Below are positions 5,695-44,470 of a stretch of 64,000 nt of DNA, piece by piece. The position numbers and the translations under genes were made by a program. The stretch lies in NCBI GenBank assembly GCA_002633005.1, contig NMRA01000128.1, positions 453,711 through 517,710 of the forward strand, read 5' to 3'. The notes under the pieces are model-generated. The model made no database searches, was not told the DNA's origin, and saw only the letters and a program-made list of their open reading frames with translations. This stretch comes from Phoronis australis. Taxonomy: Eukaryota > Animalia > Phoronida. How positions within the stretch are numbered: position 1 is the first letter of the stretch; every line of letters starts with the position of its first letter.

Positions 5695-5737
5695 TAATTT
5701 TTGTCTCAAGGATATTGATGAATGTCGAACAGCTCTA

Positions 5738-10520: not shown

Positions 10521-12498
10521 ACAGACTCGATGTATGTACAGATTGTTAAAAATGACCTAGTGTTGAAAGCTTTGTTCAGTTATCGACCTTGGCCAGATTC
10601 AGATATGTTCAATCCAGTTTAATGTCAATAGTTGTAAGAGGAACGAGTACTGTGCAGAAATATAGCCATCGACACTTTTGTGAATATACTGAAAACAAAC
10701 AATAACGGAGTTAAGAAACCTGTCTAAATATGGATTTCGATTAAATTTGGCAAATAGTTTTTTAATAAGGAAATGATCGGCAACGCCATTCCATTTTCGG
10801 ACGGATTTGACTGCTTTTACGTCACCTCGTGGCAATTTTTGTTATTTTTGCGTCGTTTTCTGGCGTCCGCCTCTATCTGCCGAACCACTCAGAAGATCAT
10901 CATGAAAATTTACTGATGTCTTCCCCAGACTATGAAAAGGCCACGATTTTGTTTGCGTCCTTACCCCTTTGAAGGAGCCTTTGGAAGATGTGCTCATATG
11001 GAGCGACGACAAACACTACCGAGTGTCGGTGATGGTCATTTATAAGCGGCTGCTCAATCATGTAATTCTGTTGATTTTACTTTATTTCTGTTTCTGTTGA
11101 CAAAGGACGTTATTACATCCGAAAATTTCAGTTGATCTATTCTTGTTGTTTTAATTACCTATTTATATTCTACATTTCGTGAAACAATAGTATCCTTGGG
11201 AGGATCTGGATCGTCTTATTTAGTTTCAGATTTATTTTCTATGTTGTTTTATGTAATGTAAAAGTAAATTATGAATCTCTGTTTGGTAGTTTGCTTGACC
11301 CGGCAACTGTTTTAGCGCAGAACAAAACTATATCTCTTACCTAAACGCTGTGTTACTCCAACGTTACATGTCTGACAATTCAATAAAAATTGGGTCAAGC
11401 TGATTGTTGACATGGCTGGATTAAAACTTTTTGAATGACGTCTAGGTCACTCATCGTCTCGTTTTTGTTACTCTTTTGATAACAAGGTCCAAAGCAATCG
11501 ACGCACTGGCAAATTATGGTTGTCTTAAGGGGGAGGGGGGGGGGNGTACATTGTCTTGACTGAGTCCCACTGTAAAGAGAGGATCACGACTGCAAGACTA
11601 TCTATGCCAACAACCTTTCATTCCTTCCAATGACACCCAGGGAACACAGCTACACACCACAGATTCTCGAAAGAGGTCGCTGTCGTGGTACACCTCATGT
11701 GCGCATGCATCATCACACAGTGACACCATAGTCTATAATCTATGGTGACACGTAACAAATGCGAAGTCTTGCAGACCCTACTTGCACTATCGTTTTCTTA
11801 TTACGCTCCGCGAGTGCATATTTACCAGAATGGGAGATGTGTCCTAAGGAGTAGGAATCCAACTACAATTTTCGAAGAAAAGTGTCCTCGTAAGACCCCT
11901 CGCTGGTTCCCTGTGTGTTGCCGGACTAGGCACGTAGGCAACCGGCGAGAGTAAGACCCAAGAAATTTAAGGTGTAACCGTTTATTTGGTCTGTTGATGG
12001 AAGGCCCTATAGACTTCTTAAAATCCTCCTATGTACCACAGGCTGAAAAATACGCACTGAGGAACCAGCTCAGTTGGGGTTGTACTTCATGGAAATCAAG
12101 ATGCTTTATAAGTGAACCTAGTTCTTAGGATAATATAGGATGAAATTATGTTGGTTCAGTGGCGGATCTAGGATACCATAAGGGGGGCCCAGCATGTTGC
12201 CTCGGAGAATTGGGCAAAGGGCGATCTGGTATGCGCAGGCAGGGGCTGCCGATGTGGACTCGTTGTTCCCAAAGTACTAAAAAATTCGCGTATGCGGTTA
12301 TTTGTACAATGAATATAAGTCCATGTTTGTACAAACAAGGTTGAGAATAGGTAAAATAGGATGTTTACATTGTACGTAAGGTTTTTGGTACTTTTGAGTC
12401 AAATTTCTCTGAATTTATTGTAGACGTTTGCCAGTTTCTTCAATACAGCGATGAACGATGGCTAGAATGTAGGACTCAAGTCTATCGTCTTCTGAAGA

Positions 12499-12832
12499 AT
12501 GGATGCAAAAGATAAACGTCGACTTCGGTTAAACTATGATTTCCTTCTAGAAAATCTTAGCGACGTGCATAGCATTGCAGTACGCGTAATTTCCAAAACG
12601 GGCACTCGTTCTCTCGACAAAATTACAGGCACCAACAACGAGGAGTGTAAAGCATTTCTGGAATGCTTGCAGAAGATAGAAGGCGGTTATGCAGCATTCT
12701 GTGCGAGCTTAGATGAACTAGAGCTCAGTTGGATAGTGGAGAGATTGGAAGAGACGGACATTAGCCGAGACGACGACCAAACTGTACCAGCGGGACCTTT
12801 GAGGAGAAGTTCATCATACCTTGAATCAAAAC
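12499..12832 (+). CDS. NLR-like/STAND receptor copy 1, coding exon 1: CARD-like death-fold effector domain
   Basis: ATG at 12499. About 90-aa helical domain with a CARD-like pattern (RRLRLNYDFLLENL...FLECLQK..GGYAAFCASLDE...WIVERL). Canonical donor C|GTAAGT at 12833. The 334-nt exon ends in phase 1, matching the acceptor at 17957. Confidence 0.8.
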
Positions 12833-13154
12833 GTAAGTAGCAGTGGTGGATTTATAGGGGGGCCAAGGGGGCCACACACCCCTAAAACCCTCCCAGAGAT
12901 AGCCATTTTAAAACCAATATTTTAGAAAGTAAAAGTAAGTTTTAGATTATTTCAAATGAAGCAAATTACAGACGCAAATTATTACTGTCACTGATCAGCC
13001 CGGTATTGGCTGCCAGCGAAGCTAACTTCACGAGTAATCCGAAAGCCTTGTGTGTCCTAACAACCCAGCAGAATTCACGTACTGATGGTATAGACCCAAT
13101 TCACGCCGACAGGAGGAGCGTTCCACAACGAGGCTCGCTACGACTGGAAATAGC

Positions 13155-13838
13155 GCAGAATGGTGAATGTTGACCAAATCAAAGACGCTACGGTCTCTGA
13201 CCAAATCCCCTTTTGTCCGCTGACGTCACACGCATACTGGCGCCCCCAGTGGAGGCCCTGAGAACTCGTAAATAAGCACGCTGGCGACTGTGATTAAAGT
13301 ATTTTTTATGATTTTTCCAGAGTCGCTATGTTTTAGTGTGTTTTTTAAATAATGTTGCATGTCATACCTCTCAGAAAATTAATATTGTTCCAATAAATTA
13401 AGAAAATTGGAATATTCATTCTCGCGATCTTGCAACACCATCCAAATGTTCTTCTGTGTTACACACGGCAAAGCCAAAATTTATCCCCACGCGAAATAGC
13501 CTTGTTCACGCTCGACTAAAAAGGAATCTTTCAATCATAATTAATTGGTACTTTATCCCATTCATTATTATATACCATGCATTATGTTTTTAGAAAAAAA
13601 AACGATACTCAACGTCCCACAATAAATACAAGTCTGTTCGCCAGCTACCCTCTGACACAGCGTCACCTATACTGTGATAGAGTGTATTCGCCAGCTTGGC
13701 TCGGCCGCTGCTAGGCTTGATACTACCGGGTTCATGAACTCGGTTTATTTACGAGTTCTCAGGGCCTCCACTGGGGGCGACAGTATGCTTGTGACGTTAG
13801 TGGACAAAAGGGGATTTGGCCAACATTCACCATTCTGC
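13155..13838. mobile_element. Foldback/MITE-like element with about 100-120 bp inverted arms
   Basis: GCAGAATGGTGAATGTTG...CGCCCCCAGTGGAGGCCCTGAGAACTCGTAAATAA (13155-13277) is mirrored at 13744-13838. Confidence 0.7.
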
Positions 13839-13982
13839 CTGGATTAGCTCTGTTGGCTTATCGGGACTCTATTCACGAGGCGGACATTAAAATCCAAAGC
13901 GAGGCTCACTGCGATAAACAAAGCGGAAATTCACACTGCGTGAGTTAAATGGCCGGTCTTTGGAGTCCAACCTGAATATTAA

Positions 13983-15616
13983 AGGAGAATGCCACCCGAT
14001 TTAATTAGTCTTTTTTGTCGTCTTAATCGGTCTATATCCACATCGCCTCGCATACGGTCGACCTTACCTTGCCAAGAGGTGTCGCGTTAACCTGTGAGGA
14101 AGGTGAGAAACTACGCTAGCGACGTCAGTGGTTCATATGCAGAATGAATGCCGCTATGTTGCGGTGCATCGTTCCCGCTTGTCCGAACTAAGCAGCTGCG
14201 AGGAAAGCGGGTATATCGTTTTTTTTTACTTCCTCGAGAGTCCGAAATGCTTAGGAAGTAGCTCATCGTAGTCACGGTGAAGAATGAAATGTAGGCTGTA
14301 AATAGCAAGTATGAGGCCGTGAAACATCTCCGTGTCTGTGGTCTGCAGACGTCGACAGTGCCTGACGAATGCCGACTTACAAAATAACTCCATACGTTAC
14401 GTTGTCTGAGCTTGTTCACGGTACCTCTCTAGTATTTCTTCATCACTGTATTCCTGTTCGAATTGATAGCATGTAAAACTTAACGATCCACCTGCGAAGT
14501 CGGGAGTGATGAGCTCTAGCTAGTCCTAAGTCGGGATTGCGAGTTGCCATGTTGGCGTTTATTACTGAGCGTTCTGTTTCAAAATGAATTATTCTCATCC
14601 TAACCAATACTTATATAAAACTGAAACAAAGTCTGCCTCATTAGATGCAATTTGTAATACCTTTGGAGTGTTCGTGAGTGCAAATGATTTGAGAAGCCAG
14701 CAATGAATAAATCACTGCGTTACCGGCTTTACTTTTTGACGGGACACCGAGGCCGTTTGAGCTCATGCTAATTTATTGTTTGCTGGCAGAAACTGTTGTG
14801 AAACAACTCGATTTCCATCCCACGGCCAGGTGTTAGGGGAATCTTTATTTACATTTACATTACTCAAATAATGATTGTCAATGTACAACTTCTGCCCTGA
14901 CGGTGCTGTGGCCAAAGCGGAACCTGAATTCGCGGCACCCGACGAGTAAGTAGATTTGCAGTTTCGTGCCAAATTCACCAACATAATCACGTGCACATTA
15001 CTTTGGCTCACTAGTATAGTATTTTCTTGACTGGAAGTTTAGTTTCCACTGAACTTTGGCTGGTTTATGTTCGTGATGTCTGATCAGTTGGCACTGGCCG
15101 GCCGCGACGGGCCTGATCGGGCTCCGAGCCACTGGCCAGGATAACAAGCGTTTTGTGTTTAGAACTCAAAAAATCACAAGTCTAAACAACACAGATCAAA
15201 GTTCTCGTGTCTGTATTTCACGAAAAATACTTCGAACAGACCCCAAACTCCTGCTACGGACCTTATTGGCCTGCCGAACTTTGTAGGCTAAGGTTTGTCC
15301 AAAAACCAATAAATCCGTAAGAGCGAAATAAAACAACACGTTTTCATCAGAACTCGGTGTATTTTTAAGGGTTTTACATCGAAGTTTGATGATTTATTGG
15401 TGTTAAACGATGACTTCAAGCGATAAGCTGACACCAGTAACCCGTGTTGAGAACTGCTGAACAGACTGCGTGTGACACCGATGACATCACTGGATAATTT
15501 CAACACCTCCGTCTGCCGTCAGGTGTCAGGTAACGCAACCGTACGTGTAGTTATGGAGTAGAACTACTTGATCTAAATCGATACAAATTAGGTTGTTTTT
15601 TGGGTGGCATGCTCCT
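13983..15616 (+). mobile_element. Non-autonomous Kolobok-like DNA transposon with decayed THAP domain, in the intron of receptor copy 1
   Basis: TTAA on both sides (13979-13982, 15617-15620). TIR AGGAGAATGCCACCC / GGGTGGCATGCTCCT. Frameshifted MPLCCG...SFF.LP...HLRVCGL THAP-like relic at about 14148-14350. Second copy at 62115-63759. Confidence 0.8.
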
Positions 15617-16489
15617 TTAAGACATGCGCACAATTTCGCATGCACATGAAATTTGACTACCGTTTCTAGTTGTGCTGGCCAGCTGGAGACGGTGGTCACT
15701 GTCTACATGGAATCCAAATCAAGTGTTTTACTGCCCGGGTGTTGTTTTCGGTATAGGTGCATCTGATAACCGAAATATCGTTTGTTTTTGCATGTAAAAG
15801 TTTAAAAATCACATCTAAGTTTGAAAGTTTAGATATTTTTGGAGCGGTGAATCTTCGGAGTAGTGAATCGTCGAAGAAGTGAACTTTCGGAATAGTGAAC
15901 CTTCCGAGTAATAAACCTTCGAAATAGTGGGATGTTCCCATTTCCAGCGATGTAAGCAACTTAAGTAACACGCTAAAATACAACCAGATAAACAATTTTA
16001 TTAAGTCAGTCGCCGACTAAACTTCATATTTCCGTCTGAGTATGCAATGAGGTGTAATCACTCATTTAAACATGGCTGATTTGAAACTTTGGCAGGAAAT
16101 AATGCGAGAATGTTCTCTTTCTGGAGCACATTACATCCTAATTTGTGTTCCGTTCTTTGCGAGCAACCGTCACAGCATCCTCGTCTCTGGTATTACAAAT
16201 TCCTTCTCATCTCATGAACATAGAGCTGAGAGTCATGGTTGTGCTGCGTCAAAGGCCTTACCGAAAACTCTACAGTGTCGACGCTTGCAAAATACCAAAG
16301 GTTCACCGTTCTTGAAATTCGAACCACCCACTCAGTGCTGGCTACCGGCCTGAATAGGATATATAAATTTGAGTAGAGAGATGGGGGAGTCTAACAAAAA
16401 GTCACCCCTGCATCGGCCAAACCTCTGCATGCTACTGCCTGACCGCTAAAATGTCTGTAAAATACCCTTTGTTGCATGCAGAATGTTGC

Positions 16490-17450
16490 TCGACATTATG
16501 CAAATGGTTTCAAACGGTTACCTGGCAGGTAAATTTGGCAGAACTCAGATATTTGATTGTGTGTCGCGGGGCTAATCCAGAGCAAGACTTGTTTCGCTGT
16601 GTTTATTCATGATACAAGGGCTTACGTAGAATATTTTGCATCTGGTTTCATGCGGTCCCTTGGGTTGATTTACGTCAAATTTTAGCCCTTTCTTTAGTCG
16701 TCTCGCAGGGTCACCCCACCCCTGAAATTGTCTGGCATCTTACTGTTGTACGATGTGCAGTGACACTGATCAGCATCGTGCAACTGGCTTCAAACGGTTA
16801 CCTAGTGGGTTCATCTAGCTCGACTCAGGCATTTGGGCGTGTCTGACGGGACCACCACTAGATTTGTCTGGCAGTGTTTATTCGTGATACCTGGGCTTAC
16901 AGTGAATATTTTGGAAGATGGTTTTAAGCGGTTACCTCTTGGGTTGATCTAGGTCAATTTTAACCCTTTTTGATAATCGTCTGGCAGGGGCACCCCATCA
17001 CTGAAATTGTCTGGCATCTAACTATTGTGCCATGTACAGTGATGCTGAACGTCGTGTAATTGGTTTCAAACTGTTACCTGGTGGGTTGATCTAGCTCAAC
17101 TCGGCTATTTTGGCGTGTCTGGCTGGGCTAACCCACCACTAGATTTGTGTGACAGTTTTCCTTCGTGATACCTGGGCTCACGGTGAATATTTTGCAACTG
17201 GTTTCATGCATTTACCTCTTGGATTGATCTAGCTAATTTTTTTACCTTGTTTATAACCGTGTGGCTGATACTCCCCACCACTGAAAGTGTCTGGCAGTGA
17301 CCAATTTTGATACAGTGGATTACGTAGTAGGTATCCAAAGCAGTTTGAAGTGGTTACCAGAAAAGTTGATCTAGCTCAATTTTTTAGTGTCATTCTCTTG
17401 GCTCCCCTGACCACACCCACCAGAGCGAACCTGCCAGACGGCCATTTCCA
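16490..17450. repeat. Degenerate tandem array of about 280-bp units in receptor copy 1 intron
   Basis: TGG(T/C)TTCAAAC.GTTACCT recurs at about 16505, 16785 and 17061, with a weaker copy near 17340. CACCCCA...CTGAAATTGTCTGGCATCT also recurs. Confidence 0.65.
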
Positions 17451-17957
17451 AACTTCAGGATACCCACAGAGCACTGTGGCACCAAAGAAAATTGGTTACC
17501 TTTTCATGCCCAAAAAAGCTCTGGGATGCCGGTCTACAGCTTTTCTTGAGTTGGGACTCGTCTCTGTTTGATTGAATGAACGTGGATTTGGAATTCGCCG
17601 CCGAAGATTGATCCGTTTAAAAAGCTTTTGCACGTACTTCCGATTGGAAGTACGTACAGTTGGGACACCCGATTTGTCAATTATAACCTTGTCACCTTCT
17701 CGGAATTCCGATATTGTTTTGTGTTTTGCAGACGATAAAATGTAAGGCGTATGAGAGTCTACTTTGCACTACTTTGTCATTCGCCCATGTAATATAAAAA
17801 TACGTACTCGGTGTTATTAAACAGTCGTGTTGTAACACATTCCAGGTCATGTGAGAAACATAAATACTCATTAAATTGGGAAAGTGTTCAGTAGTTATAA
17901 AATTGGGAAAAGTCAGAGAGTATAGACATACCTTTAAATATATCCTTTTTTCTCCAG

Positions 17958-20140
17958 TGAAGTACTTCCCTAGAAGAAACGAAAATTTTACTGGCCGAGA
18001 GAGGGAGCTTGAATGTCTACATGATGAATTTCACAAGTCATCTACGAAATCTGCGAAATGTCGCTCTCAGGCAACCAGTCGACAAGAGATACGGATTCAT
18101 GGATTAGGGGGTGTCGGTAAATCCCAAATCGCTATTGAGTATATTCATCGCCACCAAAACGAATATCGTCTTATTAGATGGATTCGCTCAGGACCACATT
18201 CCATTAGAAACTCCATCATTAACTTTGCAAAAGATCTTGACGTTAATGTTGAGGAAGTAGTTGACGACAAGGATATTGCTCTTAGAATATCAGATGTTTT
18301 ACTCACTTATGATTCTTGGCTTCTGGTGTTCGATTACGTAGTGTCGAATGATGATATTAAACCATTCATGCCCGACTTGGACCGTCTTAAAGAAGGTCAA
18401 AATATCATCATTACTTCGGTTACTCCCACAGGTACACCTAACTGCCTCGAAGTGAATGCATTTACGGAGGAAGAAGCCTATGAATATGTGTCCAGTCGTC
18501 TTCCCCATATTGCATATTCTGACTACAAAAATGTCGAAGCAGTTAAAAACCTCACGAAACAGCTTGGCAACTTGCCCCTTGCCTTGTCACAAGCTATTGC
18601 ATTCATTAAGTTTGGCTCATGCAACATTGACAAGTATATAAAAATCCTGAGCACCAGTCACGAGTTGCTAGACGAGAATGTCCACTTTCAAAATCATGCC
18701 AAAAAGTCTGTGTATTTCACCCTTATGACTTCCATTCGGAAAATCCTCGATGATCAAAGTTCTTCCATTGGTGAACAAGCAGACACGTTACTGAAATGCG
18801 TATCTTTGTTGGATTCAGAAGATATTCCTTTAAGTTTGTTTGAAGAGGATGCATTTTTTTCAGGGGACATTTTAAATAAATCTGTTGCAAAGTTGCGGGG
18901 ATATTCGTTGATCAGTAGCCAACGACCGGGCACGGTGCGTATTCACAAACTTGTCCAAAGAGTTGTTCAAGAGTACTTATACAAGTTTGGACAACCAAGT
19001 GAAGTTGAACAGATTGGTCTCCGCCTAAAATCACTCAAACGTCTACCAACGATGTTTAAGAGGAAGTTGCCACGAGACTGCTCGTGTATTGGTTGGAGAA
19101 ATGTCAACAGAGATGTCCTCGATACGTTGCAATCCCTACTTCCGCATGCCAAGTCTCTACTTTGGCATATTGACCAGGAACTCGAGGGTCTAACAGAATT
19201 GACGCTGCCATCTGAAGACCAATGTACAGATGTGCGTAAGCAACAGGATGACCTAATTCAATGTAGGGACACGATGCTCTTTTTCATTGGATTTTCATAT
19301 TACTTTCTCCGTGACGCGCCTGAGGCTGCCAGTGCATTTAAAGACCTTGTTCAAGTGCGCTCAGAAACAGGAAAAGGTGACGATGTGAAAGAGGTCGAGG
19401 CGTTGGAGATGTTGGGAATCTGCAACCGACTGTCTCGAAATCACGAAGATTCGGTTGGAAATTTAACAAAAGCTTTGGACATTCTTAACAACTTACAGAC
19501 CAGTAATCACGACCAACTGAGAATTGCCATTATGACAGCTCTTGGCAAAACGCGTTACATAAAGGGTGAGTACCAAGAATCCTGCCAACTTTTAGAAGAG
19601 GCACTGAATCTGCAATCCAGTTATAGTAAAACATGCCCCGAGAAGAAAAGAGATGTGTTCTGCTGCCTGTTGTCCTATATTCTCCCTAAGCTTGGTAGCG
19701 CTTACCTGGGCGCGGGGAAGTTACCAGAGGCGAGGGTAAAGTTTGAGGAATGCTTAGAGGTGAGACAGAAGCTGTATTACGAAGGACATATTCTTCTTGC
19801 AGCATCGAGGTTCTGTTTGGGAAAGGTGCAACTTCTTTCTAATGACTTTGAGGATGCCCGAGAGTCATTCCAGTTTTGTCTCGAATGTGCTGAATCTAAC
19901 TACGGCAAACAGCACTCCTTTGTTGGCAAAGTAAATGCAATTATTGGCAAGTGTTGTATACTGCAAGAAAAATACCCTGATGCGTGCAAATCTTTGACCA
20001 CAGCATTAAAAATCTTAGCATGGAGTTATGGCGAGATGTCTGAAATCCATGATGTGGTTCAGAAATGGCTAAAGCATGCAATGCAGCCTGACAAATGTTC
20101 TTTCGAGGACACCGAACGATTATATTTGTTTGATTTTTAA
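17958..20140 (+). CDS. NLR-like/STAND receptor copy 1, coding exon 2: NB-ARC NTPase plus about 6 TPR repeats (spliced protein about 838 aa)
   Basis: Acceptor ccttttttctccAG at 17957 joins exon 1 in frame (C+TG=Leu). Motifs: FPRRNENFTGRERE, Walker A GLGGVGKS, Walker B WLLVFDYV, sensor IIITS, GNLPLAL (GxP), MHD-like RIHKLVQ. TPRs from about 19270 (ALEMLG.., TALGK.., PKLGSAY.., FCLGKV.., AIIGKC..). Stop at 20138-20140. Confidence 0.92.
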
Positions 20141-21609
20141 CCTACCATCCTCTTTATCTGTCGAACCTTCCCCTCTCCAGTCTCCGTCTCTCAACATGTT
20201 ATAATCTTCCCGAGGATTACTGATTGATTTTCACAGCATCTGGTGATTTTCGGACGAACCGAACTAAACATTCGCTGTGTGTGGTAATTTGTTTTTTGCA
20301 TCAGTCATCTGCCTTTCACAAAACCGCGCGTACGATATTGAAAATGTCATCATGTGGATTTGTTTCGTTGATGGCTTGCAGAAACAATTGGAAGAATTCG
20401 ACTACTTCTGGGACTGCAGCAGTTTTATTTTGTTTACGCGGCTCTTTATCTTCCAAATGACATAACATGTCTTAATGAAACCCTGCAAATTTGTTTATCA
20501 TCTTAAGAAAATGACACCTGCAAATTTCAGGACTATTCTGAAACTGTATTGCGTTTCCTAGGGACTACTGGCATTTTATTTGTTTTGCGCCCATCTCTTT
20601 ATGTGCCAAACGGTTCAGTTAAGTTCAACAAATTTTTATAACGCAGAGGACGGCAAGCGGAACCTCCAGTTTCGAACGGCTAGTGCTGTGCTCAGAGACA
20701 TTTTAAATTTTTCAATTCTTTATCGGAAATAATGAAAACCATTCAAGAATTTGAAATTGAACTTTTATCTTGACTTTTTTTGATTTGAATTAAATACGGT
20801 AACAATATTTTGCATGAGAAGTACCCATACACCGTTTGCAGTGCTTGAGCGTTGGTTTATTTAAGCGTTTAGCGTTGATCTTGTTAAAAATAGATTTAAT
20901 CTATTGCGTCAAGTGTAACACCTGTAACTGTATAGTAAGACGCCGGTCGCGAGAAGTATTGAGTAGATTGCGTGATAAAAAAATTTGAGTCGACCAAAGT
21001 TGTGTTCTGCTGTCTGATGGCAGGAATTATTAATTTCATGTTTGTTTTGTGGCTTCGTGACATGAGACAAGAACCGTTTTAAATATTACTGTATGTTAAA
21101 ATGCGACCTCTGGTGGCGCTGCTTTGTGTGCAATGTTTTTTTTTAAATATTAGTGTCTTTTGTTATTGTTCGTTACGCCTTGGCTACTACGACGCCCATG
21201 CGTTATCGTGTCGGCGATGGCAGTGATCTAGAATACAATTTCCTTTGTAACTCTTTCTTTATTATCTTGCACTTAACCAATTAAACCCGTGCGCTATACC
21301 AAGCAAGGTGGGGCGACTGTTTTATTAAGTGATACCATGTCAAATTTTACGAATACCGGAAATGCCGCCGTTTCCTAAAAAACGATAAAAGTCACACCAA
21401 ATCACCAGTATTCACCCCAAAGCCACTATTTGCATGCGATTACTGCGAACTGAGAGACAGTGCATTCCGACTAACAAAACTATCCAGATTGCAGGAATCA
21501 AGTGAAATATGGGTGTCGACCAGCCAGATCTTTTACAAATCCAAAGTGTCTGAAGTAATTTTCTGCGAAATTTCATCTTCCCGCTTGCAAACAGTAATGG
21601 TTCAGGTAA

Positions 21610-22172
21610 CTGTGAACTATGTTTACGAGGTTATATTCATGCGCAATTGTCTTAAATTCTCTTAGATCTAACCCCTACAAAGTATATTCTGAAAGGTGTA
21701 TAAATTTCCTCACAAAATTTATTATTCTTGTTTATCTGCCTTTATTATGTCACGAGACATGTGCTTTTTTAGTAGTTTTTGTTACTTTAAGTAGAGATAT
21801 TAAAAATATTGTTCCTCCAATCGTATTGGTCTTTTGTGAACATTTTGATAACGGCATTTTTGAGGGAAATAGGTCTCAGTTTTCTAATTATTGACTTTTT
21901 AGAGCATTTTGACCCAAAGCAGTCGCACTCGTGATTTTTGAAGTCTTTGTTCCGAAAAACTAGGGGAAACAATATTTTTAAAATCCCTGTTCAAAGTAAA
22001 AAAAAATAACTGAAAAAGTCACATCTCGTGACAAAATAAAGACAAGTAAACAAGAATAGTAAATGTTATTATGAAACTTATTCTTTTTTCAGGAAATATA
22101 TTCTTTATAGGGGTTAGAGCTAGCGGAATTTAAGATATTTGCACATAAGTACAACTTGGTAAACAAGGTTCA
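21610..22172. mobile_element. Long-TIR MITE (imperfect palindrome)
   Basis: Left about 200 bp mirrors right about 200 bp. Orthologous copy at about 33525-34615 and a partial copy at 45405-45660. Confidence 0.6.
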
Positions 22173-24001
22173 AAGCCACTACTGAGCAAAAAGTGCGTCA
22201 AGGGGTCAACAACTGGCAATCTTTCTGTCGTAGCCTTTACATACAACACAACACTTAAAATGCCCAGACAAGCCAGAAGGCGCCATTTTTAAGGAAATTG
22301 CCAGTCTTTAACTCAAAACAGACTAAAAAATCAAGCAAATGCCATTCATAGCATTCAAAGCAGCACAAAACTTAAAATGTCCACAAAACCCAACAGGCGG
22401 CAATTTTTAATGAATTTAGAAAAGGCAAATTCAACCGTGGCTCAACGTGACCGTTGAATGGGTCCTAACATCAATGCGAGCAACAGCCGAGGTCGACCCA
22501 GTTAGTTCACCAGGCATAGGGGAGATGGAGTAGCAAGGATGAAGCAGCAACCGTTATCGACTTTCCTATCTGCACCACTGGAACTTACTAAGGTCATATA
22601 TCGAAAGTAGAAGGGCGACGATGTAATCAGATGGGATTTTTCATGTCAAGTTCCCAAAGGAAGTGGTGATTTTTCCGAATAAAAGCGAAGCATAATTAGT
22701 AACTGTAAAATAAGGTCAATATCTGGAAAGGAACAAACAGATTTTACATTCTGTTTAGTTTTGTTTGTAATTCAAATTTAATTATTTTTTATTAAAATAT
22801 AATCGTTTCGGTACTGAATTTCACAGAGGCACTCTTGCTTCAAAATTGTGGAGTGCTACCTGTCAATCAACACCGACCAAAATTACCTCCAGAATAGATT
22901 TAACAATAGAAAACGAACCACGGAGAAGGCTCTCCCATAGTAGGGGGTGACTGGGACGTGATACAGATATTTTCCCTCTCGGGTATCGTGAAATAATCCA
23001 ACAAAAGATAGTGAATTCAAAATGGCGGCGTGTCTTGCTCGGACCAAGCACCTGTTTGAGTTTCCGAGAAACAGTCTTGGTATACGATAATGCAGAAGAT
23101 CCACATTCACTATTCAAGTGGATTCAGTTTTTATAATTGGAGATAGAAACAACATGACATGAAAATGGCGTTTATATAAGTTACCCCTATCGTTCCTCAA
23201 TGTATCCATGCAGCCCATTACCATAATCTTTGTGTTCTCAAACCTTTATTCAGTGGAAGTAATTGCATGCCGATTATGCAGAAGCAGTTCAACTCTGACC
23301 CCTCTAGGTTTATAGCTGCCAAAAGTAAAACTTTCCAGCCTGGGAACAATCTGAACTAGACTCTTGCGTAAACGCGGTTAGTGCTTAATGAACAGCATTT
23401 CAGTACTTTCAGTATTTTTGCGATAAGTTCGGGTGGCCCTCAATTTTTCAAAATCATCGTGTAAATAAAGTGCACTTTTTCATAGGAGATAAAAACAACA
23501 ACATATTCGGTTCTTTCATAATTTTATTCGCACAAGTGTTCTCCGCCTATATATTTAATATCTGTTTATGGTTTTGTACCAAAGCAAGGAATCGTTTAGT
23601 TTATGCACAATCAGGTAGGTTCCGGCAGCCGGCTTCAAATTGACTGACAAACTGATTCTAATATCTTCTTTAACCAATCGACATAATGAATTCATTTTCA
23701 CCCTTACCTAATTGCTATTGAGCAGCATGATGGAATGAATGCAGATATCTGACGAAGTACTGCGCGCAATATCTCAGAGTTGTAATTTACTAAACAGTCT
23801 TTGTTCATAACGCACGCGACATCACCAATGACACCAATGAGTTCATTTGCTGTTCCGCACTCTATCTTACGTTCAAAATGACTTCTCTCTTGTCACGTAT
23901 TTTCGGCGAAAAGGAAGAAGAGCAATAAAAGACCATTTATCTGAAAGGGCCTCAGATATTTAATTAAAATGATAGGTATGGTCTCTTAGTGCCTGGATTA
24001 T

Positions 24002-24936
24002 CTGTCGATGCCAGCTCCACACATATGACTGTACCCTCTCTGACAGTGAGACCACCGGCTACTGGCGTGCCAGTACAGGGTGCCTCGGAGGACGATAATG
24101 CGTCGATGTCGAAACTCAGGTGGATTGGTCGATCCATTCTGCAAAAGACAATTATTCAGCATAACGAATTATCGAGGTAATGATTTTCGATTATAGATCG
24201 CAAGGTCTTTGATTTATTCTTCAAATGTATGATTTACCTTCAGCTTGAATAAGTAATCGTTTTGTACCCCTGATTGCAGTTATCATTTTCATTTTACATT
24301 TTACCCTGGATTTATCAGCTCCAGAGATCTTTTGATGCAATAATGGATTCCGAATTTGTCCACCTCGTGCATAGAGAAATATGGAATCTGAAACTTGTTC
24401 AGAATGCAGGCCTCGCCTGGGTCCACGTCTCGGATACCAATGTAAGCCAAGCTTTTGGTGCTTAACATGTAAAGATAAAAAACAATCATCACTTTAATAC
24501 CTTCGAAACGCTTGATGCAAAAAGTGTATTGGCAAATCTGTGCTAACACACCATGGCTTGGCCTAGTGGTGTCATTTAAGTATCCCGGTACTCCTTAGGC
24601 ACAAAACAAGTTGGAAAAGTAAGCTATTCAAGCACCGAATAACTGGCTTGCTGAAATTTATTATTATTTGACATTACCTGCCGATAAGAAAATGTAGGTC
24701 AAGCCTTGTATGACTGGTGCCACTGAATACGCTCACTTACACAATAGATAGGTAGAAAGAAAGGAGGGCGGGAGACAGGGAGGGAGGGAGGAAGGAAGAA
24801 AGTAAGGATGGATGGATGGAAGGAAGGATAGATGGATGGATGGATGGATGGAAAGAAAGGAGGGAGGGAGGAAGGAAGTAAGGAAGGAAGTAAGGAAAGA
24901 AGGAAGGAAGGCAGGCATGCAGNNNNNNNNNNNNGG

Positions 24937-24969
<33 letters not shown>

Positions 24970-25520
24970 AGGAAGGAGGGAAGGAAGGAAGGAAGGAAGG
25001 GAGGAAGATGGATGGATGGATGGATGGATAGATAGATAGATAAACAGAAAGAAAGAAAGATAGACAGACAGACAGATTGACAGATAGATACATGTAGGGA
25101 GAGAGATAGAAAGGTAGATAGACAGATAGGGAAATAGATAGATACAGAGATAGATAGCCAGATAGATGGATGGATGGATGGATAGATAAATAATTTAAAA
25201 CAGGGAAACCATAAGCGACGACTAGTTGTCGCAGAATTGTAAACATTTGCTTACATGGTGTTCACCCATTCAAATCCCGGAAGTCCCGGGACGAAGTCTT
25301 TTAATTCATGAAGCAAGAATGACATGGGCATCCCATAAATATTGCCGCTCTTTGACGTCAACAGTGTGTTGATATCAGCATGCGCGTCGATCCATACAAC
25401 ACAAGCATCTGGCTTCGCTTACAGGTGACCATGTATACTTCCTATTGCCAGGGAGTGGTCACCCCCAACAGTTAGAGCAATTTGACCTGACGAAATTGTT
25501 TCGAATACCCTTTTTGAAAG
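24002..25520 (-). pseudogene. Truncated arginase pseudogene (copies of exons 4-6 only)
   Basis: Exon copies at 25520-25255, 24466-24305 and 24138-24002. Premature TAA at 25419-25421 (CAA in the intact copy). SGNIHG changed to SGNIYG. Exon-5 acceptor AG>AT, exon-6 donor GT>AT. Last exon deleted (junction about 23761). Exons 1-3 were not duplicated. Confidence 0.92.
24745..25190. repeat. Compound tetranucleotide microsatellite (GGAA/GGAT/GGCA/GATA) with N gap
   Basis: Directly visible. A shorter, degenerate equivalent is at 38253-38478. Confidence 0.9.
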
Positions 25521-26430
25521 CTGAAAATATAGAAGTGCCCCTGATTAGTACAATACAAACCTGTCAACCCCTTCACAACTTGTCTGAATTAGCTGAAATG
25601 GAACGAAAATTTTGAATTGACTGTCATCTCACAACTTTGAATTATATATTACTGTCGTTCGAGTGTATTTTTCGGAATCGAATGATTCTTGCACTTTTCT
25701 GCTGTATTAACTCTCTACAGCTGTTGGAACACAAAAGGGAAACATAGAATGTTGCTAGAATACACTTGTAATATTCAAAATGCACTTAGAATATTTTACG
25801 AGTGCAATTCGATTACTGCCGAATACCATACGAGATCTCATTGCCGGAGTTTCCTTTGTGGTTCTTCTGTAAATTGGCAGGCTTACTGTGAGCAAGATCA
25901 TGATCACTGTTAAATCCTGGCAAATGAAACTCGACAATTATGTCTATATCTGAGAGGCAGGAAGAGGGGATGGGGACTCTGCCTTGGAATCTGAATCTGA
26001 TTCGATATGTTGTCTGAGCAAATTCAAGTTAAGTTCCAGTGGCAGCTACAGCGTTTCTTTGCGATCTGAGACGTTCTTAATTTAAATAGCCCCCGACTCA
26101 TTTGATGGCCAATGGAGGTCCTTCTGGCTGCAATCCAAGTGTCAAGACCTCATTCGCAGTACATTTCTGATGAACAATTTGATATCGACATAAATTCACT
26201 CAGTATTAAGAGATACTTTCAAAGTGCAATCTATCTCATTATTGGGCTCTGCACTTCACGTAAGTCGGAATTTTAAATGTTATACCACAATATTAGCCTG
26301 GAATGGCTAAGACAACCGTGTAATAACCCATTTAGTTATCTCACTATTTAGATAACATTTTTGGCGGCAACCGAGGCCGGTTTCGAACGTACGATTCACA
26401 GCTGAAAAGTACTGCCTGTTGTCTTTAATA

Positions 26431-27232
26431 GACCGGCAGCCCAGAGCACTTAGCATAGATGAACGAGGTACCAACATCTGACCACGGGAGCATTTAAAGT
26501 CCACCTCATTATGTACAGAAATGGACGTCTTCCGTTGTTTGCACTCTGGGTGTGACCCCTGGGGGCCTTACAAAGACCCCAAAAAATGAGCTAGACTAGA
26601 TATTCGAGATACCAACCAAAACTGATTTAAAACGAACAATAATACCGCACTGAACACCGAATGACACATGACAGACAAATTGCACTCTGGAATGGGTCCG
26701 GCACTGAGAAGCCAAAAAAGGACCCCTCAAAAATGAGCTAGCACATACATTCGAGGTACCACACAAAACCAATTCCATGTGATTCAATACATGTCACAGA
26801 TCACTAAAACCCCTATGACAGACAAAATACACTCTGGGTTGTGCCCGGCAGAAACCCCCAAAAATCTCAACCATGGTATGCCATCAAAAATTTGAGCTAG
26901 ACTAGATTTTCGAGGTACCGGCCAAAACTGATTTTAAACGAACAATAGTACCGCACTGAACACCAAATGACCCATGACAGACAAATTGCACTCTGGAATG
27001 GGTCCGGCAGAAACCAAAAAAGGANCTAGACTAGATTTTCGAAGTACGGGCCAAAACTTATCTTGAACTTGAACAAACAATAGTACCACACTGAACTCCA
27101 AATGACCCATGACAGACAAATTGCACTCTGGAATGGGTCCAGCAGAAACCAAAAAAGGACCCCCCCCAAAAAAAAAAACAAAAAAAATGAGCTTGCTTAT
27201 ACATTTGAGGTACCTCACAAAACCAGTTCCAT
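26431..27232 (-). mobile_element. Copy of the 5150-5694 MITE family with internally amplified subrepeats
   Basis: Starts TA|GACCGGCAGCCCAGAGCAC. 26431-26880 is the reverse complement of 5250-5694. The block ...ATGACAGACAAATTGCACTCTGGAATGGGTCC... occurs three times. Confidence 0.7.
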
Positions 27233-28795
27233 GCTTATATAGACAGCGTGCTTTTTGTTTGCTATGTTCCTTATGTATATTCCTTAGTTTTTATCTATTC
27301 ATGTTAGCCTTATATTCCTCTGGGTTTCAGTTACTATGATTTCGACACCTTGTTGTGTCGATCTATAATTTTGTTTTGTTTTGTCATGCTGCCTAGCTGT
27401 ACCACTCCATGTTCGTATATTCCTATTTACATGCTTACTTTTGCCCTCTTTTTCTTATGGCCCTTTTGGCAGCCTCGCTCGCTCTCTCTTGGGTGGGCGG
27501 ATGCATCTTTCTGCTGCATCTGTGGCAGATTGTCACACACCTTTACAGTTCAACATATGTAACTTTTGTAATTACCGATATCTGTAGTAGTTTAGTTTGT
27601 CATAATATATATGACCTTTTATCTCATCTACACGTGTTGTTTACTGTAAACTAGCTTCGGTATCGCTTCGCAGTTAGCGCATATAAAAGCTAATAGTTGT
27701 GTAGTAACTGCAACCGAAATAGTCCAGAGATTCCAAATCTTCAGTTTGGCTGTCACCACATTCGTACTTTTGTATCTATGTTATAAAGATTGAACTTGAA
27801 CTAATGATATCTGTAGTTTTGTTTGCTGTGAAATGTTTACTGTACCTGTAAAGATCCAGGGATGGGTTTACAATGAACTGATTTCTAAGTTTCGCTGGTG
27901 ATCAAACTCTACGCCACTGTTTTGGTACATTAAACTTAAAACTAAAATAAAAAGACAAAAACCCGTTCCCGCCCGGCAAAAAAACAAGTAGACTGAGGTA
28001 TTAAAATATATAACAAAAACCGGTATGAAACATGTTTTTAAACATTGGTTTTAAAAAACCAATGTTCCTTTGAGGAGTGGCCCTTTGCCAACTAAGATAA
28101 ACAAAAATATAATTTACCGTTTTTAGTCCTTATGTAATACTTAAATGAACCAAGTTAAGATCACTCTCTATTGCAGGCTGTGATTATGTGCAAATGTTAG
28201 AGCAATCCAACTTGGGTGTAATAAGAACCATCATTGTTGAGAAAGTAGTGCTAGCGATCACTTTTTCAAAGCTTAGATGTAGATGAATACAAAGGGCGTG
28301 CTGACTAATAAAAGTTGCCTGGGGCAAAGGGAATTTTAGCGGAGATCAGTGTAAGCGAAAAATTCTACACATGTTTATTTCTAACCAAAATTACTGGTTT
28401 ATACATTTTGAAAATTCGCCAGTGTGTACAGGCACATAACTGGGCCTTGCTCGCACTGGACAATGCGGTCGTCACAACTGTGTCCGACTTAGGCCCCGCT
28501 CTCTTTGATCCTGGGGAAAGCCGCTGAGAAAGAGCAGCGGTGAAAATTCCCGCATATTTTTAGAAATGGGTTTTTTCCTTGTAAGCGCATTATTCACGGC
28601 ATAGTTAGTTATTTGTACCATTGACGTAAATCTATGTTTGTACAAACAAGGTAGAAAATAGGTCAAATGTGTTGTTTACATTGTATGTAAGGTTGTTGGT
28701 TTAGGTTTGGGTACCTTTGCATTTATTGTAAGCATACGCCATTTTCTTCAATATAACGACGGCTAGGATGAAGAGAGTAGATCGTTTTCTGAAGA

Positions 28796-29129
28796 ATGGA
28801 TGCAGAAGGTAAACGTCGACTTCAGTTAAACCACGACTACCTTATAAAGAATCTTAGCGACGTGCATGACATTGCAATAGGCATAGTTTCCAAAACGGGC
28901 ACTCGTGATCTCGACAAAATTTTAGGCATCCAAAGCGAGGACCGTGAAACATTTTTGGAATGCTTGCAGAAGATAAAAGGCGGTTATGGAGCTTTCTGTG
29001 AGAGTTTAGAAGAACGAAACTTCGGTTGGATAGTGCAAAAATTGAACGAGACAGACATCAGTGAAGACGGCCAAACTGTACCAGCAGAAACTCCTTTGAA
29101 TAGAAGCTTGTCATTACTTGAGTCCAAAC
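28796..29129 (+). CDS. NLR-like/STAND receptor copy 2, coding exon 1: CARD-like domain
   Basis: Paralog of 12499-12832 with the same 334-nt length and the same C|GTAAGT phase-1 donor at 29130. Confidence 0.8.
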
Positions 29130-30037
29130 GTAAGTAGACCTATTATGGGGAGTTAAACACAATACTTCACTGTTTAACAGCTGGAAGATTAATGTTTGTG
29201 TGTTTTTGCCTGTCTATGCGCCTTTGTCAATATGTTGGCCATCGGTTTTGAACTGTTTTTCCTCCCGTTTTTCTGTCCAAAGACCAATATTGAAATCAGG
29301 CCACTTGTCAAAACAAAATCGGGCTGCCGCAAAACATTATCTTATGGAATTGAAGCAGTGAGTTCAAACTCATAATTCAAAATTCCTGTCTCGCCAATCT
29401 ATACTGTAACACTAGTCCACGGTTTCGTGCACTATCTTGAATATTCGAAACCGTGGACTGGCGTATCCCATAAGCTGTCATGTATCTCATTCGGTGTATC
29501 ACTTCACACCAATTTGCTGGGATAAGCTATTAAGATACCTAGCATACATGTAGCCATCTCCGTTGCCAAGTAAAACAACCAGGATAGCGTTCCGTAGACC
29601 AACGAATCTCGCGAGTAAAACTAATCTGGTCACGTGTAACGCTTGCAATGCATGATGGTATCTCACGAAGTCTTGTGTGACCTTGCATTTTTGCGAGATT
29701 CTTTCGTTTAAGAATTGTAGCCCAGAGCATTTCGAGTCAAACGTACCCCAGAAAAGTGAATGGCTCGACCGCTCCAATTTAAACACGGATCTTCCATCAA
29801 TTGCCCAACGATGCGTTGTCCTATCATTTCTGCTTTGTGTGCCGAATTCTGAGATTGTTTGGAAATGACATCATCGGCTTTTCCGTCCTGGAATGATGTG
29901 TTAGTGGAAATTATGTGTTTATTATCCTACTGCATGTTTAATAAACATTATACTCATAAAGATGGGAAAACTATTCAGTAGTTAAAAAATTGAGAAAAGT
30001 CCGAGAGTATAGATATACCTTTTCATTCTTTTTTCAG

Positions 30038-32136
30038 GAAAGTACTTCCCTAGAAAAAACGAAAATTTTACTGGCCGAGAAAGGGAGCTTCATCGTCTAC
30101 ATGATGAATTTCACAACTCATCTGCGAAATCTGCAAAACGTCGCTCTCACGGAACCAGTCGACAAGTGATGAGGATTCATGGATTAGGGGGTGTTGGTAA
30201 ATCCCAAATTGCTATTGAGTATATTCATCGTCACCAAGACGAATATCGTCTTATTAGATGGATTCGCTCAGGACCGCATTCAATTAGAAACTCCATCATT
30301 AAATTTGCAAAAGATCTTGAGGTTAATGTTGAGGAAGTAGTTGACGACAAGGATATTGCTCTTAAAATATCAGATGTTTTATTCACTTATGATTCTTGGC
30401 TTCTGGTGTTCGATTACGTAGTGTCGAATGATGATATTAAACCATTCATGCCCGACCTGGACCGTCTTAAAGAAGGTCAAAATATCATCATTACTTCGGT
30501 TACTCCTCTAGGTACAACTAGTTGCCTCGAAGTGAAGACATTTACGGAGGAAGAAGCCTATGAATATGTGTCCAGTCGTCTTCCCCATATTGCAAATTCT
30601 GACTACAAAAATGTCGAAACAGTTAAAAACCTCACGAAACAGCTTGGTAACTTGCCCCTTGCCTTGTCACAGGCTATTGCATTCATTAAGTTTTGCTCAT
30701 GCAACATTGACAAGTATATAAAAATCCTGAGCACCAGTCACGAGTTGCTAGACAAGAATGTCCACTTTGAAAATCATGCCAAAAAGTCTGTGTATTTCAC
30801 CCTTATGACTTCCATTCGGAAAATCCTCGATGATCAAAGTTCTTCCATTGGTGAACAAGCAGACACGTTACTGAAATGCATATCTTTGTTGGATTCAGAA
30901 GATATTCCTTTAAGTTTGTTTGAAGAGGATGGATTTTTTTCAGGGGACATTTTGAATAAATCTGTAGCAAAGTTGCGGGAATATTCTTTGATCAGTAGCC
31001 AACGACCGGGCACCGTGCGTATTCACAAACTTGTCCAAAGAGTTGTTCAAGAGTACTTATACAAGTTTGAACAACCAAGTGAAGTTGAACAGATTGGTCT
31101 CCGCCTAAAAGCACTCAAACGTCTACCAACGATGTTCAAGAAGAAGTTGCCACGAGACTGCTCGTGTATTGGTTGGAGGAATGTCAACAGAGATGTCCTT
31201 GACACGTTGCAATCTCTGCTTCCGCACGCCAAGTCTCTACTTTGGCATATTGACCAGGAACTCGAGGGTCTAAACGAATTGACGCTGCCATCTGAAGACC
31301 AACGTACAGATGTGCGTAAGCAACAGGATGACCTAATTCAGTGTAAGGACACGATGCTCTTTTTCATTGGATTTTCATATTACTTTCTCCGTGACGCGCT
31401 TGAGGCTGCCAGTGCATTTAAAGACCTTGTTCAAGTGCGCTCAGAAACGGGAAAAGGTGACGATGTGAAAAAGGTCGAGGCGTTGGAGATGTTGGGAATC
31501 TGCAACCGACTGTCTCGCAATCACGAAGATTCGGTTGGAAATTTAACAAAAGCTTTGGACATTCTTAACAACTTACAGACCAGTAATCACGACCAATTGA
31601 GAATTGCCATTATGACGGCTCTTGGCAAAACGCGTTACATAAAGGGCGAGTACCAAGAATCCTGTCAACTTTTAGAAGAGGCACTGAATCTGCAATCCAG
31701 TTTTAGTAAAACATGCCCCGAGAAGAAAAGAGATGTGTCCTGCTGCCTGTTGTCCTATATTCTCCCTAAGCTTGGTAGCGCTTACCTAGGCGCGGGGAAG
31801 TTACCCGAGGCGAGGGTAAAGTTTGAGAAATGCTTAGAGGTGAGACAGAAGCTGTATTACGAAGGACATATTCTTCTTGCAGCATCGAGGTTCTGTTTGG
31901 GAAAGGTGCAACTTCTTTCTAATGACTTTGAGAATGCCCAAGAGTCATTCCAGTTTTGTCTCGAATGTGCTGAATCTAACTACGGCAAACAGCACTCCTT
32001 TGTTGGCAAAGTAAATGCAATTATTGGCAAGTGTTGTATACTGCAAGAAAAATACCCTGATGCGTGCAAATCTTTGACCACAGCATTAAAAATCTTAGCA
32101 TGGAGTTATGGCGAGATGTCNAGGATTACTGATTGA
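30038..32136 (+). CDS. NLR-like/STAND receptor copy 2, coding exon 2: NB-ARC plus TPR (3' end interrupted at an assembly N)
   Basis: Acceptor ttcttttttcAG at 30037 is in frame with exon 1 (C+GA=Arg, then KYFPRKNENF). All NB-ARC motifs are intact. At the N at 32121, 172 bp present in copy 1 (20041-20212) are missing, so the true stop is uncertain. Confidence 0.88.
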
Positions 32137-34023
32137 TTTTCATAGCATCTGGTGATTTTCGAACGAACCGAACTAAATATTCGCTGTGTGTGGTAATTTG
32201 TTTTTTGCGTCAGTCATCTGCCTTTCACAAAACTGCGCGTACGATATTGAAAATGTCATCATGTGGATTTGTTTCGATGATGGCTTGCAGAAACAATTGG
32301 AAGAACTCGACTAGTTCTGGGCCTGCCGCAGTTTTATTTTGTTTACGCGGCTCTTTATCTTCCAAATGACATAATATGTCTTAATGAAACCCAGCAAATT
32401 TGTTTATAATCTTAAGAAAATGACACCTACATATTTCAGGACTATTCTGAAACTGTGTTGCGTTTCCTAGGGACTACTGGCATTTCATTTGTTTTGCACC
32501 CATCTCTTTATCTGCGAAACGGTTCAGTTAAGTTCGACAAATGTTTATAACACAAAGGACGGCAAGCGGAACCTCCAGTTTCGAACGGCTAGTGTTGTGC
32601 TCCATAGAGACATTTTAAATTTTTCAATTCTTTATTGGAAATAATGAAAACCATTCAAGAATTTGAGATTGAACTTTTATCTTGTTTTTTTTTTGATTTG
32701 ACTTAAATACGGTAACAATATTTTGCTTGAGAAGTGCCCATACACCGTTTGCAGTGCTTGAACGTTGGCTTATTTAAGCGTTTAGCGTTGATCTTGTTGA
32801 AAATAGATTTAATCTTTTGCTTCAAGTGTAACACCTGTAACTGTAATGTAAGACGCCGGTCATGAGAAGTATTGAGTAGATTGCGTGATAAAAAAATTTG
32901 AGTCTACCAAAGTTGTGTTCTGCTGTCTGATGGCAGAAATTATTAATTTCATGTTTGTTTTGTGGCTTCGTGACATGAGACAAGAACCGTTTTAAATATT
33001 ACTATATGTTAAAATGCGACCTCTGGTGGCGCTGCTATATGTGCATTGTGTTTTTTTTAAATATTAGTGTCTTTTGTTATTGTTCGTTACACCTTGGCTA
33101 CTACGACGCCGATGCGCTATCGTGTCGGCGATGGCAGTGATCTAGAATACAATTTCCTTTGCAACTCTTTCTTTATTCTCTTGCATTTAACCAATTAAAC
33201 CCGTGCGCTATACCAAGCAAGGTGGGGCGACTGTTTTATTAAGTGATACCATGTCAAATTTTACGACTACCGGAAATGCCGCCGGTTCCTAAAAAACGAT
33301 AAAAATCACACCAAATTACCAGTATTCACCCCAATGCCACTATTTGCATGCGATTACTGCGAACTGAGGGACAGTGCATTCCGACTAACAAAACTATCCA
33401 GAATGCAGGAATCAAGTGAAATGTGGGTGTCGACCAGCCAGATCTTTTACAAATCCAAAGTGTCTGAAGTAATTTTCTGCGAAATTTCATCTTCCCGCTA
33501 GCAAGCAGTAATGGTTCAGGTAACTATGAACTTTGTTTACGAGGTTATATTCATGCGCAAATGTCTTAAATTCTGTTAGATCTAACCCCTACAAAGTATA
33601 TTCTGAAAGGTGTATAAATTTCCTAACAAAATTTATTATTCTTGTTTACCTGTCTTTATTTTGTCACGAGACATGTGTTTGTTAGTAGTTTTCGTTACTT
33701 TAAGTAGAGATATTTGTCTTTTGTGAACATGTTGATAACGGCATTTTCGAGGGAAATGGGTCTTATTTTTCTAATTATTGACTTTTTAGAGCATTTTGAC
33801 CCAAAGCAGTCGCTCTCGTGATTTTTGAAGTCTTTGTTCCGAAAAACTAGGGGAAACAATATTTTTAAAATCCCTGTTCAAAGTAAAAAAAAATAACTGA
33901 AAAACTCATATTTCGTGACAAAATAAAGACAAGTAAACAAGAAGAGTACTAAGTGTTATTATGAAACTTATTCACTTTTCAGGAAATATATTCTTTATAG
34001 GGGTTAGAGCCAGCGGAATTTAA

Positions 34024-44371: not shown

Positions 44372-44470
44372 AATGCTCAACTTAAGGAAGCCTGCATAAA
44401 GCTCGTCGTATGAAGTTTCATTATTATCCTAAATGTTTCTTAAACAAATAAGTCACTCACTAGCAGAAAT

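Follow-up and report, generated by a model that had tools for sequence, protein, structure and literature searches.

A spliced, expressed gene for a putative death-fold, NB-ARC and TPR sensor, with a probable local duplicate, in the phoronid Phoronis australis

Introduction

Several invertebrates encode proteins in which a death-fold domain is joined to an NB-ARC or NACHT module and to tetratricopeptide repeats (TPRs), the latter replacing leucine-rich repeats (LRRs) or WD40 repeats in an otherwise equal tripartite plan, and the genes occur as lineage-specific copies. CED-4/Apaf-1 homologues of amphioxus, sea urchin and Nematostella have varied death-fold N-termini and carry TPRs instead of WD40 repeats (Zmasek 2007, PMC2246300). 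Acropora combines CARD, DED or Death effectors with TPR repeats, at loci that form tandem pairs or triplets and show effector shuffling (review, PMC4083563); the Hydra viridissima genome holds many TPR-type NOD-like genes (bioRxiv 10.1101/2020.05.26.117382); and Trichoplax is listed with four NB-ARC-TPR rows for which no effector domain is given (PMC6321704 supplement 4). The lancelet protein BbeApaf-J, which binds double-stranded DNA, consists of two CARDs, an NB-ARC and an undefined C-terminus (PMC11747288). Here we describe a stretch of 64,000 nucleotides (the window) from the phoronid Phoronis australis (assembly GCA_002633005.1, contig NMRA01000128.1, positions 453,711 to 517,710). It contains a spliced, expressed gene, gene 1, whose product has an NB-ARC and six TPRs behind a likely death fold, and a likely local duplicate, gene 2. 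All positions below are those of the window.

The preliminary description of this locus, made from the sequence alone, had presented the two genes as a non-canonical animal sensor system. The architecture, in which the death fold is probable, holds, but its class has already been catalogued in invertebrates (PMC2246300, PMC4083563, bioRxiv 10.1101/2020.05.26.117382). Gene 1 shows three features of that class, namely an NB-ARC with Walker A and B, GxP and MHD-type His motifs and a TPR array, encoded by one spliced transcript in an animal; it differs in having lost the sensor-1 Arg. Since both the architecture and the tandem arrangement are in print and no partner gene adjoins, we conclude that gene 1 and its duplicate are a further example of a catalogued invertebrate class and not a new system. 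In the open-access literature searched, we found neither the exact CARD-NB-ARC-TPR combination for one animal protein, which subscription papers, figures and supplements may hold, nor a functional test of any animal NB-ARC-TPR protein that says what is sensed or activated, which subscription papers may hold. Papers that use the string "NB-ARC-TPR" are mostly on algae, fungi, plants and amoebae. Genome surveys have tallied NB-ARC-TPR proteins of animals for years, and gene 1 provides a compact, transcript-supported example. Two features make it useful: a nucleotide switch without the sensor-1 Arg, for which plant RPP1 offers a parallel, and a sister copy whose differences lie chiefly in the effector domain.

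Gene 1 is spliced and expressed

Gene 1 starts with the ATG at 12499, which an in-frame TGA precedes by 6 nt. A donor after position 12832 (GTAAGT) and an acceptor before 17958 (a polypyrimidine tract followed by CAG) join its two coding exons in frame, and the reading frame continues to a stop at 20140, giving a product of 838 amino acids with no internal stop. We compared this model with four RNA runs (X1–X4) from two studies under one species label, using about 18–19% of each raw run; splice joints were judged among the joints listed, beside which there were 40 more. The GT..AG joint from 12832 to 17958 was present in X4, where 8 reads with 5 starts crossed it, and in one X1 contig. The two-exon, in-frame structure first read from the sequence was thus found as RNA in two of the four runs. 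RNA depth over the large exon was about 2–15, with nearly all reads in a single mate orientation, corresponding to sense if the usual stranded protocol applies, and coverage continued through a 3′ untranslated region (UTR) of about 1.1 kb. Two observations weigh on the other side: the portions of X2 and X3 used contained no read across the joint, and expression is low. Gene 1 is nevertheless a spliced, expressed animal gene.

One X1 contig aligns to 12422–12832 and carries 60 further letters that remain unaligned. Because the break falls exactly at an AG acceptor, gene 1 probably has an additional, non-coding 5′ exon upstream.

The intron of gene 1 contains an element of 1.64 kb (13979–15620), of which a second copy, 87% alike and in opposite orientation, lies at 62111–63764. 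Both have 19-nt terminal inverted repeats ending in TTAAAGG/CCTTTAA, and no Pfam match was found in their frames. RNA covers the element deeply on both strands, and reads that run from its end (15617) into its start (13986), 10 in X2 and 15 in X3, suggest tandem copies or circles. We take the TTAA ends to recall miniature inverted-repeat transposable elements (MITEs) of the Kolobok/T2 type. The same intron has a degenerate tandem repeat of about 280 nt, whose units are 70–77% alike, at 16448–17296.

The large exon encodes an NB-ARC module of bacterial type and six TPRs

The large exon of gene 1 matches the Pfam families NB-ARC (PF00931; E 2.9e-7, 30.5 bits against a cut-off of 23.5), DUF7779 and TPR_12 (E 1e-23). 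Six TPR units could be counted, spaced by 42, 43, 50, 42 and 42 residues and resembling the repeats of kinesin light chain, so the NB-ARC and roughly six TPRs that had been read from this exon are confirmed. The strongest match was to the NCBIfam model NF040586, the bacterial FxSxx-COOH-system TPR protein (E 6.8e-62, 210 bits, exon-2 residues 4–342), and the exon boundary of gene 1 coincides with the first positions of this profile. The curated cut-off of the family is 300 bits, and we do not assign gene 1 to it.

Homologue searches with the large exon returned 130 and 14,592 matches, with identities of at most 39% among the 120 and 150 listed. Named homologues among the matches looked up were bacterial, except for two diatom proteins, and none was an animal protein. 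The protein collections searched seem thin in animal proteins, and the bacterial matches are therefore no proof of a bacterial origin. A profile of 20 sequences ranked AfsR (1e-25) above Roq1 (4e-14) and Apaf-1 (3e-8), a ranking that leans toward bacterial proteins because bacterial matches made up most of the profile; a search with the single sequence did not have Apaf-1 among its matches at E≤10. By sequence, the switch module groups with bacterial STAND (signal transduction ATPases having numerous domains) proteins of the FxSxx-TPR/AfsR type rather than with Apaf-1, NACHT-LRR NOD-like receptors (NLRs), Avs or NPHP3.

The closest sequences, bacterial NF040586 and AfsR-type proteins, share the order NB-ARC, DUF7779 and TPR_12 behind variable N-terminal effectors. 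At the position of exon 1, the 60 homologues scanned (best five families each) carry signalling domains such as TIR_2, SIR2-like, kinase, SMEK and HTH, and none of them showed a death fold among those families. Gene 1 differs from these proteins in being a spliced animal gene with a likely death-fold effector, in two replacements in the switch described below, and in the low identity already given.

Other assignments fared less well. The Apaf-1/CED-4/Dark proteins likewise have a CARD followed by NB-ARC, the CARD being only likely in gene 1, and the Apaf-1 CARD is the top, non-significant row of a structure search (see below). Gene 1 is not an Apaf-1 orthologue: it has TPRs and no WD40 family among 22 Pfam matches at E≤1, and its NB-ARC is nearer to AfsR than to Apaf-1 in the profile ranking above. 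Nor is it a bona fide NLR as defined by NACHT and LRR (PMC3879445), neither of which is among the Pfam matches. Avs proteins are STAND NTPases with a TPR sensor region (glossary, PMC11249213); PADLOC matched no Avs (AVAST) model, only two generic TPR models. The TPR_NPHP3 model scored 18–22 bits, far under its cut-off of 100, and gene 1 is thus no plain NPHP3-like orthologue. Neurospora crassa PLP-1, Podospora anserina PNT1 and brown-algal candidates are NB-ARC-TPR sensors as well, and PLP-1 self-associates and triggers death in a manner that requires its P-loop (PMC12881547). These proteins carry patatin or amyloid motifs as effectors in place of a death fold, and variation among them is reported mainly in the repeats, whereas between genes 1 and 2 no part is more conserved than the repeats.

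The nucleotide switch lacks the sensor-1 Arg

We compared the switch motifs of gene 1 with 146 of 150 representative matches, four short ones being dropped. Walker A, the Walker B Asp, the GxP-type motif and the His equivalent to that of MHD are all retained, and gene 1 keeps 49 of the 56 positions that are conserved in at least 80% of the 146 homologues. Two replacements, common to genes 1 and 2, may cripple the switch and count against a working sensor. The sensor-1 Arg, found in 134 of the 146 homologues and absent from the other 12, is Val266; the Asn that follows the Walker B Asp (Asn in 136 homologues, Asp in 7, Tyr in none) is Tyr238. The preliminary description, which had called these motifs intact, was right about the four retained elements and missed the two replacements. 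An X1 contig spanning both codons differs from the assembly at a single site elsewhere (18302), and the changes are therefore not private to the assembly.

The sensor-1 Arg touches the gamma-phosphate of ATP, and in plant RPP1, where it is missing, the resistosome that forms is ADP-bound (PMC8813719). Because of this precedent, the Arg-to-Val change would fit both an unusual active state and a dead switch.

A protein with a dead switch might serve as a scaffold or decoy, whose TPRs and death fold bind a partner but which, with no ATP-bound signalling state, dampens or relays the signal of another receptor. Both replacements, shared by the two copies and backed by the X1 contig, would suit such a role, and the long branch of gene 1 (1.18 substitutions per site) fits drift from the ancestral mechanism; the retained motifs and the 49 conserved positions speak against it, as do the 12 homologues that also lack the Arg and the TIR-type plant NLRs of the RPP1 kind, which signal without it (PMC8813719). 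We consider this explanation unlikely. The rival explanations considered here and below are not all mutually exclusive.

Exon 1 likely encodes a death fold

The preliminary description had assigned a CARD to exon 1. No sequence search supported this. Exon 1 of either gene matched no Pfam family at E≤1, and residues 1–92 of both matched none at E≤10. The single sequence had no match in the PDB at E≤10, a two-sequence profile gave three PDB matches, all unrelated, and homologue searches with exon 1 found none. The exon-1 profile likewise had no match among 270 fetched homologue proteins, and VIA-align gave nothing significant.

Other comparisons gave leads below significance. An AlphaFold2 model from the two copies is all-helical, with a predicted local distance difference test score (pLDDT) of 69 and a predicted TM-score (pTM) of 0.50, and places helices at residues 3–34, 39–44, 48–59, 63–73 and 77–85. 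Were the first long helix to stand for two, these would fit the six helices of a death fold; that the model merges what would be helices 1 and 2 is a point against this. Foldseek returned no match to the model at E≤0.001. Its first row is the Apaf-1 CARD and eight of its top ten rows are CARDs or death domains (DDs), at E≥1, a TM-score of about 0.27 and a root-mean-square deviation of 11–14 Å, values that weaken the lead. In the Atlas comparison, CARD clusters took ranks 2–4 for gene 1 at 0.87, behind an unnamed bacterial cluster at 0.90, with all named clusters below 0.9; for gene 2, all seven named clusters listed were DED, CARD or PYRIN (0.79–0.83). Atlas rates such scores as leads, and shuffled proteins often reach similar agreement. 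Positions that are hydrophobic in both copies are identical more often (23 of 29) than the others (35 of 63; Fisher p=0.037), a comparison that is partly circular as the classes come from the same two sequences.

We judge it likely that exon 1 encodes a death fold, and are less sure that this is a CARD rather than a DED or DD. Alternatively, exon 1 could encode another small helical effector or adaptor that recruits no caspase, with the logic of the STAND-TPR sensor unchanged. That would accord with the lack of any Pfam, PDB or homologue match and with the many unrelated N-terminal domains carried by relatives in the STAND clade. Two different methods, Atlas and Foldseek, each lean to the death-domain clan, and the size of about 88 amino acids, the all-helical content and the helix spacing suit a death fold, which makes another kind of domain rather improbable.

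A proposed mechanism for the gene 1 product

On the preferred reading, the gene 1 product is probably an intracellular sensor that is triggered through its TPRs, oligomerises through its STAND module and signals through the death fold by recruiting a caspase or adaptor. At rest, the STAND monomer would be autoinhibited, its MHD-equivalent His holding ADP in place. Binding of a trigger to the six TPRs would lead the STAND module to oligomerise, and the death folds, once clustered, would recruit the caspase or adaptor. With Val in place of the sensor-1 Arg, the oligomer in its active form would probably bind ADP, as for plant RPP1, or be held by other contacts. We infer autoinhibition, TPR sensing, oligomerisation, recruitment and any immune role by analogy with Apaf-1, plant NLRs and fungal PLP-1, on which the scheme is modelled. 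A point against it is that, of 198 stop-to-stop frames of at least 62 amino acids listed for the window, 189 were scanned and yielded neither a caspase nor an adaptor nor any further immune gene. The proposal of an apoptosome- or inflammasome-like receptor thus keeps its architecture and the splice of gene 1; it is weakened in that the CARD is only a lead, the sensor-1 Arg is gone and the supposed pair is a duplicate.

Gene 2 appears silent or rare

Gene 2 can be spliced in frame on paper (29129, GT, to AG, 30038; intron of 908 nt), from the sequence alone, as had been proposed; the joint from 29129 to 30038 was absent among the joints listed for the four runs. Depth over its exon 1 was 0 in three runs and 0.6–1.3 in X4. 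The only joint at gene 2, from 29085 to 30040, looks like reads of gene 1 placed on the wrong copy. At sites where reads differ from gene 2, 32 of the 40 differences listed (184 more exist) are gene 1's letter. X1 contigs, paired between the two genes by length and depth, gave six comparisons, with 2, 1, 3, 5, 5 and 21 differences from gene 1 and 13, 10, 11, 4, 8 and 45 from gene 2, so that five of the six lie nearer to gene 1. At some sites (31111, 31142), gene 2's letter stands in most X4 reads, for which polymorphism, gene conversion or low expression of gene 2 could each account. In the runs analysed, gene 2 appears silent or rare, perhaps since the duplication left the promoter and the non-coding first exon with gene 1.

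The end of gene 2 at 32136, as first described, is not its true end. A single N at 32121 marks an assembly join that lacks about 172 bp equivalent to 20041–20212, the stretch with the final ~33 codons and the stop codon; the open reading frame beyond the N ends in sequence that corresponds to the 3′ UTR of gene 1, and the apparent end is therefore a product of the join.

The copies have diverged unevenly. Over the first 91 codons, nonsynonymous (dN) and synonymous (dS) divergence are 0.21 and 0.20, compared with 0.027 and 0.078 over exon 2, whose protein is 94% identical and whose last TPRs are near-identical. Among changed codons, 33 of 40 are amino-acid-changing in the putative CARD and 41 of 73 in exon 2 (p=0.007). 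This lopsidedness would be explained if gene conversion acted on exon 2 and the effector surface changed freely or under selection. Exon 1 of gene 2 has two indels, both of 3 nt, and its frame remains open with no stop despite about 50 differences; when substitutions were placed at random at 30–60 sites, only 7–24% of 5000 trials stayed stop-free. The survival of the frame through these changes argues that gene 2 was functional for much of the time since duplication.

The two genes might therefore be read as a cooperating sensor/helper pair, or as two active receptors that share a trigger and differ in output. The open frame, the excess of changes in the putative CARD and the X4 reads at 31111 and 31142 point this way; against it are the splice joint missing from the listed joints, the absence of exon-1 depth in three runs, the prevalence of gene 1's letters in reads and contigs, and sensor exons that are 94% identical with the same switch motifs, unlike specialised sensor/helper pairs. 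We regard either reading as quite unlikely, and the claim of a pair, for what is a segmental duplicate with no splice joint of its own found, as unsupported.

Genes 1 and 2 probably arose by a tandem duplication

Self-BLAST points to a tandem duplication of about 14 kb, with unit A (about 12297–26283) and unit B (about 28608–39562), whose common blocks are 78–95% identical and comprise both coding exons, the UTR and, on the opposite strand, the 3′ portion of an arginase gene. The DNA of exon 1 reaches only 78% identity, most of the intron sequence shows no relation between the copies, and upstream of the two genes nothing is common except repeats. We favour a true tandem duplication over alleles placed side by side because the arginase piece of unit A carries three lesions, a premature stop, a His-to-Tyr change in HGMP and the loss of its last exon, while the unit B copy is intact. 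A simple history would then be that the left copy kept the receptor promoter and received an arginase fragment of no use, with the right copy keeping the whole arginase, possibly at the cost of the receptor promoter.

That the tandem pair is an assembly artefact of two divergent alleles of one locus, as the single-N join at 27025 between the units, the many such joins in the window and the reads of other individuals, which are several percent off the assembly and mix letters of both copies, could suggest, is doubtful given the arginase lesions, expected of a partial duplicate and unlikely for an allele, and the divergence of exon 1 and of the introns. A more elaborate history, in which a bacterial-type, intron-free STAND-TPR module was captured and spliced behind a host CARD exon, oligomerises without the ATP-sensing Arg and, after duplication, kept its sensor exons alike while the CARD surface diverged so that one trigger reaches two partners, is very speculative and, as a whole, improbable.

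Table 1 Features of the locus in window coordinates
Feature	Position	Strand	Basis and remarks
Tandem segmental duplication	12297..39562	+	Self-BLAST; units A and B
5′ UTR portion of gene 1 first coding exon	12424..12498	+	Probable; preceded by a likely acceptor AG at 12422-12423
Gene 1 first coding exon	12499..12832	+	Residues 1 to ~88 likely death fold (CARD-type), then linker; open reading frame, donor, RNA depth and joint
Gene 1 intron	12833..17957	+	5125 nt, GT..AG, phase 1; contains the 1.64-kb terminal-inverted-repeat element
Gene 1 large exon	17958..20140	+	STAND module and six TPRs, up to the stop
NB-ARC, HD1 and winged helix (DUF7779), FxSxx-TPR/AfsR type	17969..18985	+	NCBIfam NF040586, motif counts
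Walker A, gene 1	18101-18124	+	Motif comparison
Asn-to-Tyr codon after Walker B, gene 1	18335-18337	+	Residue 238
Sensor-1 Arg-to-Val codon, gene 1	18419-18421	+	Residue 266
Six TPR units	19265..20023	+	Full-length residues ~548-800; kinesin-light-chain-like 42-residue period
Gene 1 3′ UTR, transcribed	20141..21300	+	End approximate; sense depth drops in the last bin; X1 contig 20292-21225; ATTAAA at 21280
Decayed arginase copy, three exons, unit A	23967..25544	-	Premature TAA at 25419-25421; His-to-Tyr in HGMP; last exon absent
Gene 2 first coding exon	28796..29129	+	63% amino-acid identity with gene 1 over residues 1-92; Atlas leads 0.79-0.83
Gene 2 large exon	30038..32120	+	Open up to N at 32121; unlike gene 1 at 41 of 693 residues
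Arginase 3′ exons, intact, unit B	36890..38849	-	Best matches mammalian arginase 2 and 1; 5′ exons of the gene not located

Other features of the window

Eight joins marked by a single N lie in the window, at 6553, 11545, 27025, 32121, 34562, 41501, 51654 and 54907. At least one of them (32121) drops sequence relative to the sister copy, and gene models near joins need care. A repeat of about 450 nt with inverted internal similarity occurs in several copies (5147–5697, 26429–27233), one cluster lying at the join between the duplicated units. Near-perfect tandem repeats occupy 41502–42004 and 44086–44723, with units of 51 nt, in which frames are open on both strands, 74 nt and 50 nt. On the minus strand, 50795–58822 holds a multi-exon sorbitol dehydrogenase gene whose best PDB matches are mammalian chains.

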